Of a stretch of 64,000 nucleotides of DNA, positions 31,522 to 38,388 are shown in pieces (position 1 is the first letter of the stretch; each line of letters opens with the position of its first letter). Location of the stretch: positions 197,545-261,544 of the forward strand of contig URLC01000002.1 in assembly GCA_900548695.1 (NCBI GenBank). Reading direction: 5' to 3'. The notes under the pieces are model-generated. The model was not told the DNA's origin. It did no database searches and saw only the letters and a program-made list of their open reading frames with translations. Source of the stretch: an uncultured Mycoplasmatota bacterium (lineage in GTDB: Bacteria; Bacillota_I; Bacilli_A; RF39; UBA660). A program made the position numbers and the translations under genes.

Positions 31522-32190
31522 ATGAAAGAAAAAAAAGAAAGAAAGGTTCACAAAAAAAAGCTGATTAAAAAGTTAAAAATATCTGATATTAAACGTAGTG
31601 AAGGTGCACATGTTGGGCATTTACTTGCGAAGGTTAAGGCTAAAGAAGTGGAACTTACTTTTTTCTGTGTTTTGATTTGTTTAGTAATTGTTTTGGTTAG
31701 TTTATATTTAGTTTTTTCTGCAGTGCGTAAACCAAATGATTATAATGTGATGCAAGTTGGTAATTTATCTGTTACATATAATGATGTTGGAACTACTTTA
31801 GGTAATATTGTTGATTTGACTCCTGTAGAACCTATGTCAGATTTGCTTGGAAAAGAAAGTAAAGCGTATACTGTTACTGTTCATAACACATCTAAAAAAA
31901 GTCAAGAATTTCAAGTTGTATTAGTGCGAGATTTAGCTATGATTGAAGAAGATAAATGTAGTGATAAACAAGTTCCATATAGGTATTTTCATTATCAAAT
32001 TGGAAAGGGACAAGTAAAAAAAATTCACTTAGAAGATGTTTCTCCTATATTATTGCAATCTGTTTTGAAACCAAACGAAAAGAAGACATATCAAGTTAGA
32101 ATTTGGATTAATAATCAGTTGCCTTTAGAGTATTTAGATTATCATTATCATGGAAAACTCACTATAAAAAATATAAAGACAGTTAATTAG
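31522..32190 (+). CDS. hypothetical membrane-anchored protein (222 aa)
   Basis: Lys-rich N-terminus and one TM helix. Confidence 0.45.
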   Translation: MKEKKERKVHKKKLIKKLKISDIKRSEGAHVGHLLAKVKAKEVELTFFCVLICLVIVLVSLYLVFSAVRKPNDYNVMQVGNLSVTYNDVGTTLGNIVDLTPVEPMSDLLGKESKAYTVTVHNTSKKSQEFQVVLVRDLAMIEEDKCSDKQVPYRYFHYQIGKGQVKKIHLEDVSPILLQSVLKPNEKKTYQVRIWINNQLPLEYLDYHYHGKLTIKNIKTVN

Positions 32191-32964
32191 TTAGCTGTCT
32201 TTTTCATCTAATAAAAATTTTTCTATAATATTGATTGTTAGGTTAGAATATTCTAAGTAAGAGTAGTGAGTAGATTTAGGATAAACTATTAAAGCAGAGT
32301 TTTTTATTTTTTTATGCATTAATATACCATCTTTTAAAGGAGTATCTTGATCATGTTCACCCCAGATTAGTAATGTTTCTGAGTCAATGTAGGGAAGGTA
32401 ATATTTTAAGTCTTCATTGATTACATTTTTGAAGGTTTGCTGCATATTGGGAGAAAGTGCTTTATAGTCGTTGGAGGCAAATATTTTTTGTAATTTTTTA
32501 TGATATTTTTCTTTTAATTTTTTGGGTAATATTTTTTTTATTTGTTTTAAAATTTTATAAAGTTTTTCTTTTAACCATATTTTTAATTTTTTATGTCTTT
32601 TTATACCGGCACTATCAATTAATATCATTTTATCTATTTTTTCTTTATAGTAACCGGTTAAAAGAGTCGCTATTCTGCCACCAAAAGAGTGTGCGATTAT
32701 TATAGGATTTCTAATGTTTTTTTCTGATAGAAAATCTCTAATTATATTAGTGTAGTCGTAAATTGTTAAATTTTGATTTGGAAATGGGCTATTACCAAAT
32801 CCTGGATAGTCAATAATATAAATAGTGAAGTTATTTTTTAAACTTTCTATGATAGATTTAAATGTTTTTCTAGTATCTCCCCAACCTGGTAGTATGATGA
32901 TTGTTTTTTCGTTTTGACCATATTTTTCATAGTAGATAGAAAAGTCATCTTTATTATAGTACAT
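32191..32964 (-). CDS. alpha/beta hydrolase
   Basis: Nucleophile elbow IIAHSFGGRIA and a later HD pair. Confidence 0.65.
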   Translation of the reverse strand: MYYNKDDFSIYYEKYGQNEKTIIILPGWGDTRKTFKSIIESLKNNFTIYIIDYPGFGNSPFPNQNLTIYDYTNIIRDFLSEKNIRNPIIIAHSFGGRIATLLTGYYKEKIDKMILIDSAGIKRHKKLKIWLKEKLYKILKQIKKILPKKLKEKYHKKLQKIFASNDYKALSPNMQQTFKNVINEDLKYYLPYIDSETLLIWGEHDQDTPLKDGILMHKKIKNSALIVYPKSTHYSYLEYSNLTINIIEKFLLDEKDS

Positions 32965-33015: not shown

Positions 33016-33046
33016 TTGTATATTATTTTTTAGATGTGATATAATA
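33016..33046 (+). promoter_or_regulatory. sigma-A-type promoter with extended -10
   Basis: TTGTAT, 18 nt, TGaTATAAT. Confidence 0.5.
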
Positions 33047-33052
33047 TAAGTG

Positions 33053-33240
33053 TCAAGGAAATGCGAGATCTGTTCTCATATAAAACCGACTAAAGTGACG
33101 ATAAGGGAGTTTTGATCAGTTATTGGTGTTGAAGACCTATTGTTATAGGGATCCTAAAGATAACGTATGAACACCCACCTGTGGAAATGCAGGTTTTATC
33201 GTTGGGCAGAACGCTTTCCTTGATCTTTTTTTTGTTTGCA
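33053..33240 (+). ncRNA. ssrS: candidate 6S RNA (SsrS-like)
   Basis: About 185 nt between promoter and T-run. The 5' tcaaggaaatgcg pairs with 3' cgctttccttga; ctgttc pairs with gggcag; ataaaacc pairs with ggttttat. These are separated by internal loops. A small hairpin acctg-tggaaatg-caggt lies on the 3' side. Sits upstream of tcdA. Confidence 0.5.
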
Positions 33241-33275
33241 TAAAAAGATGTTTTATGATATAATAACCGCACGGG

Positions 33276-34142
33276 GTGATGGGTATGTTAGTGTTGCCAA
33301 TTGTTAATCGTAATCGTGTTATGAATGTTAAAGTTAGTTTAAAGGATGCATATCAAACTCATACTGGAGTCATCTTAGAAAACGTTAAAGAAAGTGATGT
33401 TATTGTAAATCAGCATAATTTTTTAGACTCTAATTATCGAGATGATGAGAGTGTTATTCATTTTATTAGAAATACGTCTTTGATTAGTAAGAATGATTTT
33501 CAAGTTACAACAAGAGAAGGAGCAGAGTCAAACCGGTATAATGTTTATCAGGTTGGACATCCTCCACGATTTGTTAATCCGGCACTTGATAATTTGTATG
33601 CTAGTGTTATTACTGACATGAGAAAAGAAATACCTAATGTAAAAAAAGGACGTTATTTGTCTTTTGAAAAATTAGGCATGGGACAATATTTGACAGAAGA
33701 AAAAATTGCAGCACTTCAACATATTATCAAAACAGAACATGATAGAGGTAGATGGCCAATGTTATTTGAACAAGCTGGTATTGCTGATTTACCTAGTACT
33801 TTAGAATTTTTAAATCATTTTAATTGTACTATTATTAGTGATACTACTTTACCAGAAGCTACTTTACAATCTACTTTGCAGGCTTTAGAGCCTTTAAATA
33901 CTCAGGATTATCGTAATTTGAAAAAGTATTATGATATGGCATTATCTAATCAAAAAATTTATTCTAGATTATCTTTAGTTAATCATTTACTTTATAATCA
34001 ACCATATCATTTAATTACAACATCATCAGCAGAAAAGAACCAGAGAAATGGTCAACATGAGGATTTTCTTCAGGCTAAACAAAAAGTAAAATCACCAAAG
34101 GAAGTTTATTCAGAGGTAGGAGAATATGGTAAAACAGCATAG
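33276..34142 (+). CDS. hypothetical protein (288 aa)
   Basis: ORF; overlaps the tcdA start by 17 nt. Confidence 0.45.
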   Translation: MMGMLVLPIVNRNRVMNVKVSLKDAYQTHTGVILENVKESDVIVNQHNFLDSNYRDDESVIHFIRNTSLISKNDFQVTTREGAESNRYNVYQVGHPPRFVNPALDNLYASVITDMRKEIPNVKKGRYLSFEKLGMGQYLTEEKIAALQHIIKTEHDRGRWPMLFEQAGIADLPSTLEFLNHFNCTIISDTTLPEATLQSTLQALEPLNTQDYRNLKKYYDMALSNQKIYSRLSLVNHLLYNQPYHLITTSSAEKNQRNGQHEDFLQAKQKVKSPKEVYSEVGEYGKTA

Positions 34143-34821
34143 TTTTTCTAGATTAGAAGCACTAGTAGGGGTAGATTTTGTTAATTATCTACATGATAGG
34201 TCTATTTTTGTTTTAGGTGTTGGTGGTGTAGGCGGATATGTTTGCGAAGCTTTAGCTCGTAGTGGTATTGGAAAAATTATTTTGATGGATCCTGATTTAG
34301 TTGATGTTACCAATTTGAATAGACAAATTATTGCGTTAAATTCTACTATTGGGATGAAGAAAGTTCAAGTGATGAAAGACAGAATTTTGGACATTAATCC
34401 GAGGTGTGAAGTTGTTACTTTTGATACTTTTTTGACAAAAGATAATATCTCTATTTTAGATGAGATGTCATTTGATTTTTTAGTAGATGCTTGTGACACT
34501 GTTTCTACAAAACAAAGTATTATTCAGTATTGTTTAGAAAAACACCTTCCATTTATTACTTGTTTAGGTACAGCTAAAAAAATGAATCCTAGTCTATTAG
34601 AAATTACAGAACTAAAAAAGACCTATAATGATCCATTAGCTAGAATTTTAAGAAAGTATGTAAGGGATAATCAGTTAAAAGGTTCTATTCCAGTTTTATT
34701 TTCTAGTGAGTTACCTATTCAGTGTCAAGGGCTTGGTTCAACGGCTTTTGTTCCTAGCAGTGCTGGGCTTATGATTGGAAGTTATATAATACAAAAATTT
34801 TTAGACCAAAAAAAAGGATAG
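34126..34821 (+). CDS. tcdA: tRNA threonylcarbamoyladenosine dehydratase (ThiF/MoeB family, YrvM-like)
   Basis: VLGVGGVGGYVCEALARSGIGKIILMDPD.VDVTNLNRQ Rossmann motif of E1-like enzymes. Confidence 0.75.
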   Translation: MVKQHSFSRLEALVGVDFVNYLHDRSIFVLGVGGVGGYVCEALARSGIGKIILMDPDLVDVTNLNRQIIALNSTIGMKKVQVMKDRILDINPRCEVVTFDTFLTKDNISILDEMSFDFLVDACDTVSTKQSIIQYCLEKHLPFITCLGTAKKMNPSLLEITELKKTYNDPLARILRKYVRDNQLKGSIPVLFSSELPIQCQGLGSTAFVPSSAGLMIGSYIIQKFLDQKKG

Positions 34822-34840
34822 CTATGCTATCTTTTTTTTA
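34809..34840. terminator. bidirectional terminator between tcdA and lexA
   Basis: aaaaaaaa-gatagc-tat-gctatc-tttttttt. Confidence 0.6.
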
Positions 34841-35455
34841 GAACTTTCTATATAAGCCGATTGCTTTTCCTAGTATTGTAACATTTTTCAGGATGATTGG
34901 ATCCATGGTATCATTTTCTGGTTGTAATCTAAAATATCCATTTTCTTTGTAAAAAGTTTTAACAGTTACTTCATTGTCGTCATTCATAGCTACTACTGTG
35001 TCTCCATTATTAGCTGTGTTTTTGCGCTCTACAATTAAGATATCTCCGTCGTAGATACCTACATTTATCATGGATTCACCACTGACTTTTAAGGTGAATA
35101 TTTCATTTCTAGTTGTGAATAAATTAGTTGGTAAGGCAAAGTATTCATCTGGAGTTTCAATGGCTTCAATTGGACTACCAGCGGTTACTTTTCCCAGTAA
35201 GGGTACTTCAACAATGTTTTCATCTTTTTCTAGATATTCATTAGGAACTAGTACCTCGATTGTTCTATTTTTACCATTGCCTTTTTGAATGTAGCCTTTT
35301 TCTTCTAGTTTTGTTAAATGAAAATGAATGGTTGCAGGGGAGTTTAGATGGGCTTCCACTCCAATTTCTCTAACTGTTGGAGGGTAACCATATTTTGCAA
35401 TCCATTTTTTAATAATTTGTAGAATTATTTCTTGCTTAGTAGTTAGTTTTTCCAT
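34838..35455 (-). CDS. lexA: LexA repressor
   Basis: N-terminal winged HTH (GYPPTVREIG); C-terminal S24 peptidase with AG cleavage site, Ser (VSGESM) and Lys. Confidence 0.9.
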   Translation of the reverse strand: MEKLTTKQEIILQIIKKWIAKYGYPPTVREIGVEAHLNSPATIHFHLTKLEEKGYIQKGNGKNRTIEVLVPNEYLEKDENIVEVPLLGKVTAGSPIEAIETPDEYFALPTNLFTTRNEIFTLKVSGESMINVGIYDGDILIVERKNTANNGDTVVAMNDDNEVTVKTFYKENGYFRLQPENDTMDPIILKNVTILGKAIGLYRKF

Positions 35456-35553: not shown

Positions 35554-35580
35554 TGAGGTGTAATGAAGGGAGAGATGTGT

Positions 35581-35745
35581 ATGAAAATTAAAAAAATGGT
35601 AAAAGAGGGGTTCTGGTTATTTCTTCTTTATTCTTTTGTGACTTTATGTTTGTTTTTAGCAACTGATAGAATTGAACGTTTAGAACAAGTAGAGGGGGAT
35701 TTTCGTAATACGAATAGTAGTGTTTCCTTTAATTTTACTAAGTAA
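35581..35745 (+). CDS. small single-TM protein divergent from lexA; candidate SOS cell-division inhibitor (YneA/SosA-like role)
   Basis: 54 aa from the ATG at 35581 (RBS AAGGGAGAG). Helix FWLFLLYSFVTLCLFLA. Promoter contains a LexA-box-like site. Confidence 0.45.
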   Translation: MKIKKMVKEGFWLFLLYSFVTLCLFLATDRIERLEQVEGDFRNTNSSVSFNFTK

Positions 35746-35784: not shown

Positions 35785-38388
35785 ATGAATAAAATAATCT
35801 TGGTAGATGGTAATAATCTATTGTTTCGTAGTTTTTATGCGACCGCTTATCAAGGAGTAATTATGAAAAACTCGAAAGGTTTTCCTACTAATGCATTATA
35901 TGGATTTATTAATATGATGAATAAGATTATTCAGGATGAAAATCCTAGCTATATTATGGTTGCTTTTGATAAAGGGAAAACTTTTCGACACGATAAATAT
36001 GGTGATTATAAAGCAGGACGTAGTGAGATGCCTGATGAGTTACGTTTACAATTTCCTAAAGCTAAAGAAGTCTTAGAAGCTATGGGAATTAAATATTTTG
36101 AGATTGATAATTATGAGGCTGATGATATTATTGGTACTTTGGCCAAAGAAGTTGAAATGCGTGATGATTATATAGCTACTATTGTTAGTAGTGATAAAGA
36201 TTTGTTGCAGTTGATTAGTGATAAGGTAGATGTAAAACTTTTAAAACAGAGTGGTCATATAATGATGACTAAAGAAGAATTTATTAAGACATATCAAGTT
36301 CCACCAATTAGAATGATTGATTTGAAAGCATTAATGGGCGATAGTAGTGATCATATTCCTGGTGTTAAAGGAATTGGTGAAAAAACAGCAATTAATTTAC
36401 TTTCTAAATTTGATAGTTTAGATAATTTATATGCACATATTGATGAGGTTACTGGTAAAACAAAAGAGAAGTTAGAAAATGATAAAGAAAATGCTTATAT
36501 GAGTTATGATTTGGCTACTATTTATAGAGATGTTTTACTTGATTTTAGTTTAGATGATTGTCGATATACTAAAGAAAATACGAAACGTTTTACAGAACTA
36601 TTACAAGAGTTTGAATTTCATTCTTTAATAAAAAAATATCATTTGGATCAAGATATACCAGTAGAAGTTAGGAAAGAAGATATGATTCATATTTTGCCTA
36701 TTGATCAGTTGGTTGCTAATAGTTTTTCATTTTATGTAGAAACTAGAGGTAGTGTCTATAGTAAGAGTGAGGTTTTGGGAATAGGTATTTATGATGGTAT
36801 TTCAGGCTACTTTATTTCTGCTTCAGAGTTAGAAAAATATAAAGATTTATTTTCTAGTAATAGTTTTAAATATACTTATGATTTAAAGAAAAATATAGTT
36901 GTATTAAATTCTTTAGGAATTTCTATTTCTAATGTGACTTTTGATACTATGATAGCAGCTTATTTATTAGATTATGTTGTTAAAGATGATATTAGTTTTG
37001 TTGCTCAAGCTTTTTCTGTTTCCATTCCTTTATATGATGATTTATATGGAACAGAAAAACGTCCTAAAGAAGTTAATTTAGAAACATTACAGGAGGTTTG
37101 TTGTCGTAAAGCTAAGTTTATTTATGATACTCGTAATCAATTATTAGAAGAGTTACAAAAAAATAATGAATTAGATTTATTTCAAAAGATAGAGATGCCA
37201 TTATCTTTAGTACTTGCTGATATGGAACTTACTGGTATTAAAGTAGATGTTTCATATTTAGAGAAAGTTGAAGAAGATTTAGCTGGTCAGATGGCTATTT
37301 TAGAAAAAGAAATTTATGATTTGGCAGGAGTAGAGTTTAATATTATGTCGCCAGCGCAGCTTTCAAAAATTTTATTTGAACATTTAGAAATTCCGTATCC
37401 TAAAAGAGTAAAAGATGGAAAATATTCTACTAGTAAAGATATCTTGGATAAGATTCGTTTTGTTCATCCAATTGTTGATAAAATATTAGAGTATAGAACT
37501 TTGGCTAAACTATATACTAACTATGCAGTTGGTCTTAAAGCAGAAGTGCGTGAAGATGGTAGAATCCATACTATTTTTACTCAGACTTTAACTAGAACAG
37601 GCAGACTTTCTAGCATTAGTCCTAATCTACAAAATATACCAGCTAGGGCAGAATTTTCTAGATTAATTCGTAAAGCCTTTGTTCCTGATGTTAATTCTAA
37701 GCTTTTATCTAGTGATTATTCACAAGTAGAACTTCGTATTTTTGCTCATATGTCTAAAGCTTTAAATTTAATTCAAGCTTTTAAAGAGGGTAAAGATATT
37801 CATACTAAGACAGCTTCTGATATTTTTCATGTTCCAATGGATGAAGTTACTAAGGATATGCGCCGCACAGCCAAGGCTGTTAATTTTGGTATTTTATATG
37901 GAATTAGTAGTTTTGGACTTAGCGAGGATTTAGGGATTGATATTAGTACAGCTAAAAAATTTATTGATAATTATTTGGAAACTTATCCTGGTATTTCAGA
38001 ATACATGGAAGAAGAAAAAAAGAAGGCTTATGAACTTGGTTATGTTACGACACTGATGAATCGACGACGAGTTATTGAAGAGTTAAAAAATAAGAACTAT
38101 ATGATTCGTAGTAGTGGAGAGAGAATGGCGTTAAATACACCAATTCAAGGTACTGCTGCTGATATATTAAAAAAAGCAATGGTTGAGATTTACGATGAGT
38201 TTAAACGTCGTGGTTTAAAGAGTAAAATGTTAATTCAAGTACACGATGAGTTGGTGTTTAATGTTTTAGATTCAGAATTGGAAGAAGTTAGTCAAATCGT
38301 TAGAAATATTATGGAAAGTACAATAAAACTTAGTGTGCCTTTGAAAGTTGATATTGAATATGGGAATAATTGGTACGAAGCAAAGTAG
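35785..38388 (+). CDS. polA: DNA polymerase I
   Basis: 5'-3' exonuclease, 3'-5' exo-like and polymerase domains (RRTAKAVNFGILYG, VHDELVF). 867 aa. Confidence 0.9.
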   Translation: MNKIILVDGNNLLFRSFYATAYQGVIMKNSKGFPTNALYGFINMMNKIIQDENPSYIMVAFDKGKTFRHDKYGDYKAGRSEMPDELRLQFPKAKEVLEAMGIKYFEIDNYEADDIIGTLAKEVEMRDDYIATIVSSDKDLLQLISDKVDVKLLKQSGHIMMTKEEFIKTYQVPPIRMIDLKALMGDSSDHIPGVKGIGEKTAINLLSKFDSLDNLYAHIDEVTGKTKEKLENDKENAYMSYDLATIYRDVLLDFSLDDCRYTKENTKRFTELLQEFEFHSLIKKYHLDQDIPVEVRKEDMIHILPIDQLVANSFSFYVETRGSVYSKSEVLGIGIYDGISGYFISASELEKYKDLFSSNSFKYTYDLKKNIVVLNSLGISISNVTFDTMIAAYLLDYVVKDDISFVAQAFSVSIPLYDDLYGTEKRPKEVNLETLQEVCCRKAKFIYDTRNQLLEELQKNNELDLFQKIEMPLSLVLADMELTGIKVDVSYLEKVEEDLAGQMAILEKEIYDLAGVEFNIMSPAQLSKILFEHLEIPYPKRVKDGKYSTSKDILDKIRFVHPIVDKILEYRTLAKLYTNYAVGLKAEVREDGRIHTIFTQTLTRTGRLSSISPNLQNIPARAEFSRLIRKAFVPDVNSKLLSSDYSQVELRIFAHMSKALNLIQAFKEGKDIHTKTASDIFHVPMDEVTKDMRRTAKAVNFGILYGISSFGLSEDLGIDISTAKKFIDNYLETYPGISEYMEEEKKKAYELGYVTTLMNRRRVIEELKNKNYMIRSSGERMALNTPIQGTAADILKKAMVEIYDEFKRRGLKSKMLIQVHDELVFNVLDSELEEVSQIVRNIMESTIKLSVPLKVDIEYGNNWYEAK

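Follow-up and report, generated by a model that had tools for sequence, protein, structure and literature searches.

Genomic context of the RNA gene

The window, by which we mean the whole 64-kb stretch of DNA that was analysed, belongs to an AT-rich bacterium of the class Bacilli that has not been cultured. Near its middle, the genes follow one another in the order hisS, aspS, an ORF of 222 amino acids, an alpha/beta hydrolase gene on the opposite strand, a very probable 6S RNA gene, an ORF of 288 amino acids and tcdA. The features of this region and of its immediate flank are:

28116-28286, + strand: candidate T-box, just short of the threshold, directly upstream of hisS-aspS (Rfam; 86.6 bits against a gathering score of 93, E-value 2e-17)
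28323-29681, + strand: hisS
29687-31435, + strand: aspS
31522-32190, + strand: ORF of 222 amino acids just downstream of aspS, without a Pfam or NCBIfam family
32191-32964, - strand: alpha/beta hydrolase gene
33048-33229, + strand: very probable 6S RNA gene (RF00013)
33276-34142, + strand: ORF of 288 amino acids between the 6S gene and tcdA
34126-34821, + strand: tcdA, encoding a ThiF-family tRNA ct6A37 synthase, the syntenic anchor (NF011696, PF00899)
34838-35455, - strand: lexA
35785-38388, + strand: polA

The product of tcdA matches NF011696 with an E-value of 1.1e-46 and 159.7 bits, below the equivalog cut-off of 304, and also matches PF00899. An identical protein is encoded on 17 metagenome contigs, the longest among those listed being 185 kb; one contig with the locus is k119_13759 of ENA assembly ERZ27234941. 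The 288-amino-acid ORF, which overlaps the start of tcdA by 17 nt, gave no hit against Pfam, NCBIfam or the sequences of the PDB; its true start is likely the ATG at 33285, behind GGGGTGA. It is found, with 35-77% identity, in part of the lineage only, and is absent where the 6S gene abuts tcdA. At the place corresponding to the 222-amino-acid ORF, several relatives have an ORF of 27-55% identity.

The original prediction, made from the sequence of the window, had compared this arrangement to the neighbourhood of the B. subtilis 6S-1 gene, bsrA. The comparison holds, with hisS-aspS upstream and tcdA (the yrvM of B. subtilis) downstream. Among 19 loci of a close subfamily (defined below), 18 have the 6S gene directly 5' of tcdA and on the same strand, at TcdA identities of 36-69%. 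The RNA had also been placed upstream of tcdA in the window: the two do share a strand, but they are not immediate neighbours, as the 288-amino-acid ORF intervenes. 6S-1 (bsrA) is one of the small RNAs encoded between aspS and yrvM in B. subtilis (Suzuma et al. 2002, as cited in PMC10578484).

Some further elements of the window can be mentioned in passing. A second T-box leader (2997-3270, + strand), above threshold at 103 bits, lies upstream of asnA (aspartate-ammonia ligase, 3474-4442). An ORF of 142 amino acids (2512-2940, + strand) matches only the first 80-110 or so of the roughly 690-700 positions in RelA/SpoT profiles; it may represent either a short protein made up of a single domain or a fragment. 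The match to a ribosomal protein L19 leader at 1525-1561 (+ strand) is weak, with 26 bits where the gathering score is 36 (E-value 0.29), and probably due to chance. Between lexA and polA, an ORF of 60 amino acids (35563-35745, + strand), for which no Pfam hit was recorded, is called as a gene on two independent metagenome contigs (L123 and L124).

A full-length match to the 6S RNA family

When the whole window was compared with all 4227 Rfam families, RF00013 (6S/SsrS) matched positions 33048-33229 of the + strand with 52.7 bits and an E-value of 1.2e-7. The match exceeds the gathering score of 46.4, spans positions 1-187 of the 187 model positions and, with 182 nt, falls within the length range of 6S RNAs (about 160-200 nt), so that the proposal of a 6S RNA is borne out by the family model itself. 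RF00013 also scores above threshold at the same place in both nearest genomes (51.3 bits in L001 and 52.6 bits in L002). In the consensus alignment with Rfam, the family-specific motifs GGGAG, CACCCACCUG and GCAGG are found at the right places. A second 6S copy was not found in the 64-kb window, either with Rfam at E-values up to 1 or with our own covariance model.

Could the match be a borderline false positive favoured by the AT-rich composition, the locus encoding some other stable, rod-shaped small RNA such as a base-pairing regulator? The margin over the gathering score is only 6.3 bits, and intergenic DNA rich in AT often contains long hairpins with imperfect pairing. This reading, however, would leave aside three independent above-threshold matches to RF00013 at syntenic sites, the correct placement of the three motifs, the covariation along the whole rod (described below) and a genomic position that is that of B. 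subtilis 6S-1, and we regard it as highly improbable. Membership in the 6S family is supported by the match in sequence and structure, by a covarying rod-like fold and by the conservation of promoter, U-run and neighbourhood. We are confident that 33048-33229 (+ strand) is a 6S RNA gene of the Firmicutes 6S-1 type and the positional counterpart of B. subtilis bsrA. Every feature by which the family, and the 6S-1 subtype as defined by position, can be recognized in the sequence is present. This is known biology and a known kind of gene; an Rfam-based standard annotation pipeline would label 33048-33229.

Secondary structure

The elements of the RNA and of its presumed transcription unit are listed here, with RNA nucleotides (nt) numbered along the 6S match:

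33016-33021, + strand: weak -35-like element TTGTAT, 18-nt spacer to the -10
33037-33045, + strand: extended -10 TGaTATAAT (TGnTAnAnT in relatives)
33052-33065, + strand: closing stem, 5' strand (nt 5-18), partner 33212-33224
33069-33075, + strand: middle helix, 5' strand (nt 22-28), partner 33204-33210
33080-33087, + strand: helix P2 (downstream helix), 5' strand AUAAAACC (nt 33-40), partner GGUUUUAU at 33192-33199
33088-33104, + strand: central bubble, 5' strand (nt 41-57), unpaired in the Rfam consensus
33097-33104, + strand: predicted collapse helix, 5' half GACGAUAA (nt 50-57), partner UUAUCGUU at 33196-33203 (nt 149-156)
33105-33176, + strand: apical (terminal) arm (nt 58-129), interrupted by internal loops and capped by a hairpin
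33177-33194, + strand: central bubble, 3' strand with hairpin ACCUGUG-GAAA-UGCAGGU (nt 130-147)
33226-33233, + strand: run of 8 T directly after the closing stem, likely termination site
33235-33264, + strand: TTTGCA-18-TG-TATAAT (10 of 12 matches, TG present), a second promoter-like site with an extended -10, outside the RNA and placed to serve the downstream ORF

The pairings proposed originally between the two ends of the RNA all recur in this structure. In the outer helix, tcaaggaaatgcg (33053-33065) pairs with cgctttccttga (33212-33223), leaving one bulged U (33062). The middle helix joins ctgttc (33070-33075) to gggcag (33204-33209) through four Watson-Crick and two G-U pairs, and in the inner helix the 8-mer ataaaacc (33080-33087) is perfectly complementary to ggttttat (33192-33199). 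The short hairpin announced on the 3' side is equally found, as ACCTGTG-GAAA-TGCAGGT at 33177-33194, with 7 bp and a GAAA loop; its last three nucleotides overlap P2, so that the two bubble strands of the canonical fold comprise nt 41-57 and 130-144. The delineation of P2 is based on the Rfam alignment, on a constrained fold and on pairs in relatives.

The 182-nt stretch has a minimum free energy (MFE) of -51.7 kcal/mol, against -39.6 +/- 3.9 kcal/mol for dinucleotide shuffles (z = -3.07, with none of 200 shuffles as good). The canonical 6S structure reaches -47.7 kcal/mol, or -50.7 kcal/mol with minor bubble pairs. Folding was expected to reveal a long interrupted helix with a central bubble. 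The long interrupted helix is indeed obtained, but the unconstrained MFE fold is a collapsed conformer that lacks P2, whose probability in the ensemble is about 0.15-0.17.

Covariation in relatives

A TcdA search of species-representative genomes returned two relatives, both metagenome-assembled genomes labelled 'uncultured Bacilli bacterium', with 66-69% identity. Since these were the only ones, metagenome contigs were scanned with a DNA pattern taken from the 3' bubble; 80 loci were fetched, 31 of which contain a 6S match. A covariance model was built from the window sequence and the canonical 6S structure, and not from an alignment, because MAFFT applied to three sequences shifted the inner closing stem by one column. 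It matched 31 stretches, of which 19, the window included, form a close subfamily scoring 70-233 bits; 16 of the close relatives were added by the metagenome scan, beyond the two nearest genomes.

Over the 31 sequences (30 distinct), 93.0% of the cells of the 53-pair 6S structure are paired, versus 68.2% after shuffling and only 39-48% when partners are slid by 1-3 columns; the percentage paired is inflated by the fitting of the alignment to the model's structure. Double changes occur at 45 of the 53 pairs, with a covariation score of 0.561 versus 0.166. None of 500 column shuffles reaches any of the observed measures, and every helix contributes. The closing stem (helices 2 and 3) shows double changes at all 13 of its pairs, and so does the middle helix (helix 4) at all 7, with 88% of cells paired. 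P2 (helix 5) is 94% paired with double changes at 4 pairs, and the apical arm (helices 6-9) 90-99% paired with double changes at 18 of 22 pairs. The long interrupted helix with a central bubble, suggested at first from a single sequence, is in this way backed by 30 distinct ones.

RNAalifold was also run on an unfitted MAFFT alignment of 18 sequences. It found the closing stem again, as well as the apical arm and the hairpin of the 3' bubble, and 19 of the pairs have double changes. P2 and the middle helix were not recovered from this alignment, the flanks being poorly aligned by MAFFT, and the covariation in these two helices is that of the model-fitted alignment. As for the 3' bubble hairpin, its constancy among the metagenome sequences carries no independent weight, since the search pattern fixed its outer five pairs.

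The pattern of substitutions also bears on the coding potential of the locus. ORFs of 21 and 20 amino acids on the + strand and of 50 and 32 amino acids on the - strand might suggest that a small protein is encoded here and that the conservation is that of a coding sequence. However, substitutions are paired across helix arms instead of being periodic, loops carry indels of 1-30 nt, and no gene was called in the 6S interval on the four listed metagenome contigs with an identical TcdA. As no + strand ORF inside the RNA exceeds 21 amino acids, and considering the paired substitutions, we reject this reading, whose probability we hold to be negligible.

Predicted promoter, terminator and transcription unit

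The original prediction described a promoter-to-terminator unit of about 185 nt. The extended -10 is conserved and the T-run is present, which agrees well with that description. In 18 of the 19 loci, exactly 2 nt lie between the end of TGnTAnAnT and model position 1, and CTTGTA(T) occurs at the corresponding distance upstream of the -10 in the closest relatives. The fixed position of the -10 places the transcription start at about 33050-33052. The likely transcript would then run from there to about 33230-33233, for a length of about 180 nt, its ends being deduced from the -10 and the U-run.

A scan with promoter and terminator consensus sequences did not list the 6S promoter, whose -35 matches at only 3 of 6 positions, and did not score the closing stem as a terminator. 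Our calls for both elements are based on conservation among relatives and should be read as predictions. The closing stem followed by the U-run is not a compact hairpin terminator. A T-run is nevertheless found at the corresponding position in most of the 19 relatives, and three loci without it (L015, L022 and L051) have instead a compact, separate hairpin terminator a few nucleotides downstream. This argues that the U-run terminates transcription in the other loci.

The relation of the RNA to the downstream genes deserves some attention. In five loci (L037, 7509-7527; L054, 1170-1189; L069, 3098-3122; L056; L014), the ribosome-binding site and start codon of tcdA follow the 6S U-run by about 10-20 nt. 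This leaves no room for a promoter, and tcdA is probably reached there by read-through from the 6S promoter. Such loci, together with the absence of a compact, scored terminator, are what one would expect if the element were mainly a cis-acting 5' leader of the ORF288-tcdA operon, with its 6S-like shape serving in processing or attenuation. Against a leader stand the full-length, above-threshold RF00013 matches in the window and in the two nearest genomes, the conservation of the bubble sequences and of the product RNA (pRNA) template motif, for which a leader has no need, and, in the window, a distinct promoter-like sequence with an extended -10 that lies past the U-run and ahead of the ORF. 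We consider a leader function very unlikely. The ssrS gene of E. coli shares a transcript with ygfA, its downstream neighbour; co-transcription is hence compatible with a 6S gene and is no argument against one.

The 6S RNA of the window most likely forms its own unit, given the U-run and the second promoter-like site ahead of the 288-amino-acid ORF. The scenario that the original prediction had named as its refutation, in which the stretch merely acts as the 5' UTR of the ORF at 33276, is thus unlikely, and some read-through from the 6S gene into the downstream genes may occur.

The central bubble and its predicted collapse

Both the collapse helix (nt 50-57 with nt 149-156) and the 3' hairpin (nt 130-147) are part of the MFE fold. 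For the free RNA, the predicted minimum, which is this collapsed conformer, lies 1.0 kcal/mol below the canonical conformer that keeps P2.

Folding the relatives with the template stretch blocked gave a collapse helix of 6-9 bp in 17 of 19, including L021 and L079, where the sequences differ, and a 3' hairpin of 6-8 bp in all but one of these 17. In 7 of the 19 subfamily members, the window among them, blocking the template costs no energy, and the minimum predicted for the free RNA is the collapsed form from the outset. In the alignment, 77% of the cells of the collapse helix are paired with few informative changes; covariation is weak here because the helix is nearly invariant.

In B. subtilis 6S-1, a central bubble collapse helix (CBCH) and a preformed 3'-CB hairpin have been described (PMC8876501). 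The collapse helix and 3' hairpin predicted for the window match these two elements.

Predicted template and start of the product RNA

The template of E. coli 6S RNA contains the motif GAGCCGAU44. That of B. subtilis 6S-1 reads ...CCGAAC40, as implied by the 14-mer 5'-GUUCGGUCAAAACU, and the start is at C40 (PMC8876501). Aligned with these two templates, AAAACCGAC43U44A45 of the window suggests by homology that pRNA synthesis would start at C43 or U44 (PMC8876501, PMC8414754).

The full template AUAUAAAACCGAC43U44A45 gives either 5'-GUCGG..., with GG at positions 4/5, or 5'-AGUCGG..., with GG at positions 5/6. GG at one of these two places and an adenine beside the start are hallmarks of pRNAs (PMC8414754); both are found in the window, the adenine (A45) lying beside the start if U44 is used. 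Among the 19 relatives, CCGACUA is nearly invariant: U44 and A45 do not vary at all, while C43 is replaced by G in L021 and L079. The invariance of U44 and A45, the adenine beside the start and the GG at 5/6 make us lean towards a start at U44, with 5'-AGUCGGUUUUAUAU as the putative pRNA, although this does not fix the start to the single nucleotide.

The choice determines the predicted initiating nucleotide, which would be G from C43 and A from U44. B. subtilis RNA polymerase uses A-starting templates poorly, a GTP-start requirement which was shown only for that polymerase (PMC3753640).

Proposed mode of action

6S RNA mimics an open promoter and restrains RNA polymerase in resting cells. From the biology of the family, we would expect the gene to be driven by a sigma-A promoter of its own, of the extended -10 kind, and transcription to end at the U-run, with a stable product about 180 nt long. 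The rod with its open central bubble would mimic a melted promoter and occupy the active-site cleft of RNA polymerase in its sigma-A holoenzyme form, and this binding would dampen housekeeping transcription under nutrient scarcity.

When NTP levels rise, the polymerase would use the 5' bubble strand as a template, from C43/U44 (33090/33091) into the 5' strand of P2, with 5'-(A)GUCGGUUUUAUAU as the predicted product. Synthesis of this pRNA would melt P2, and the freed 3' strand could pair with GACGAUAA of the 5' bubble to form the bubble-collapse helix, while the 3' bubble hairpin would extend by three pairs. The refolded 6S RNA would no longer fit the polymerase and would be released.

Comparison with known 6S RNAs

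The RNA was compared with B. subtilis 6S-1 (bsrA) through the Rfam model and the literature. The two have in common the Rfam family, the closing stem, P2, a bubble with a preformed 3' hairpin and the apical arm, as well as the location between aspS and tcdA/yrvM. In both templates, CCGA(N)N immediately precedes the known or predicted pRNA start, which places a GG early in the pRNA, and in both RNAs the distal part of the 5' bubble has the potential to form a collapse helix with the 3' strand of P2 (PMC8876501). Differences concern the mature length (about 190-197 nt in B. subtilis versus about 180 nt in the window) and the 5' end: pre-6S-1 carries an 11-nt 5' leader (PMC10578484), and none is expected in the window RNA as its -10 lies so near the first paired nucleotides. 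The collapse helix of the window is predicted to be stronger, with 8 pairs including 2 G-C, and its collapsed conformer is the MFE. The start may be at U44 (ATP) instead of a C (GTP). Finally, an additional ORF and an alpha/beta hydrolase gene in divergent orientation are inserted between aspS and tcdA in the window.

Relative to the second B. subtilis 6S RNA, 6S-2 (bsrB), the likeness lies in the family and, provided that U44 is the start, in a pRNA beginning with A (PMC3753640). The 6S-2 gene, however, lies elsewhere in the genome and the central bubble of its RNA is less structured, and the synteny of the window is that of 6S-1.

Lactobacillales likewise possess one canonical RNA of the 6S-1 kind, whose gene has a TATAAT promoter of its own and a terminator, and their pRNAs present GG at positions 5/6 with an adenine beside the start (PMC8414754). 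The pRNAs of Lactobacillales have AA at positions 9/10, where that predicted for the window has UU. In lactic acid bacteria, the 6S gene lies between rarA and uspA, whereas that of the window lies between the alpha/beta hydrolase gene and ORF288-tcdA.

With E. coli 6S (ssrS), the RNA of the window shares the family, the outline of the mechanism and the CCGA-U template motif. In both, once the downstream helix has melted, its 3' strand becomes available for an extension of the 3' bubble hairpin; in the window, the hairpin and P2 overlap by 3 nt. The E. coli RNA is processed from the ssrS-ygfA transcript, and its 3' bubble is unstructured in the free RNA. For the RNA of the window, on the contrary, a preformed hairpin and an available collapse helix are predicted, as in Firmicutes.

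Significance

The practical result is a correct 6S RNA gene annotation for a poorly studied, uncultured gut-type lineage of Bacilli, and little is at stake in it. Two observations may be of minor use to specialists: the conserved and comparatively strong collapse helix, and the tcdA genes of some relatives that have no room for their own promoter behind the 6S gene.

The 6S RNA of this lineage might be a variant poised for release, in which the 8-bp collapse helix and the hairpin are predicted to be as stable as the open fold, initiation with ATP is possible and the RNA would form, in several relatives, an obligatory 5' part of the tcdA transcript. We put this forward as a speculation that is unlikely to hold. 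If it did, 6S abundance, release kinetics and expression of the tRNA ct6A37 enzyme would be coupled, an arrangement undescribed for 6S-1.

The finding also shows that the aspS/tcdA-linked position of 6S-1 reaches well beyond the Bacillales, to relatives whose TcdA is only 36-69% identical.
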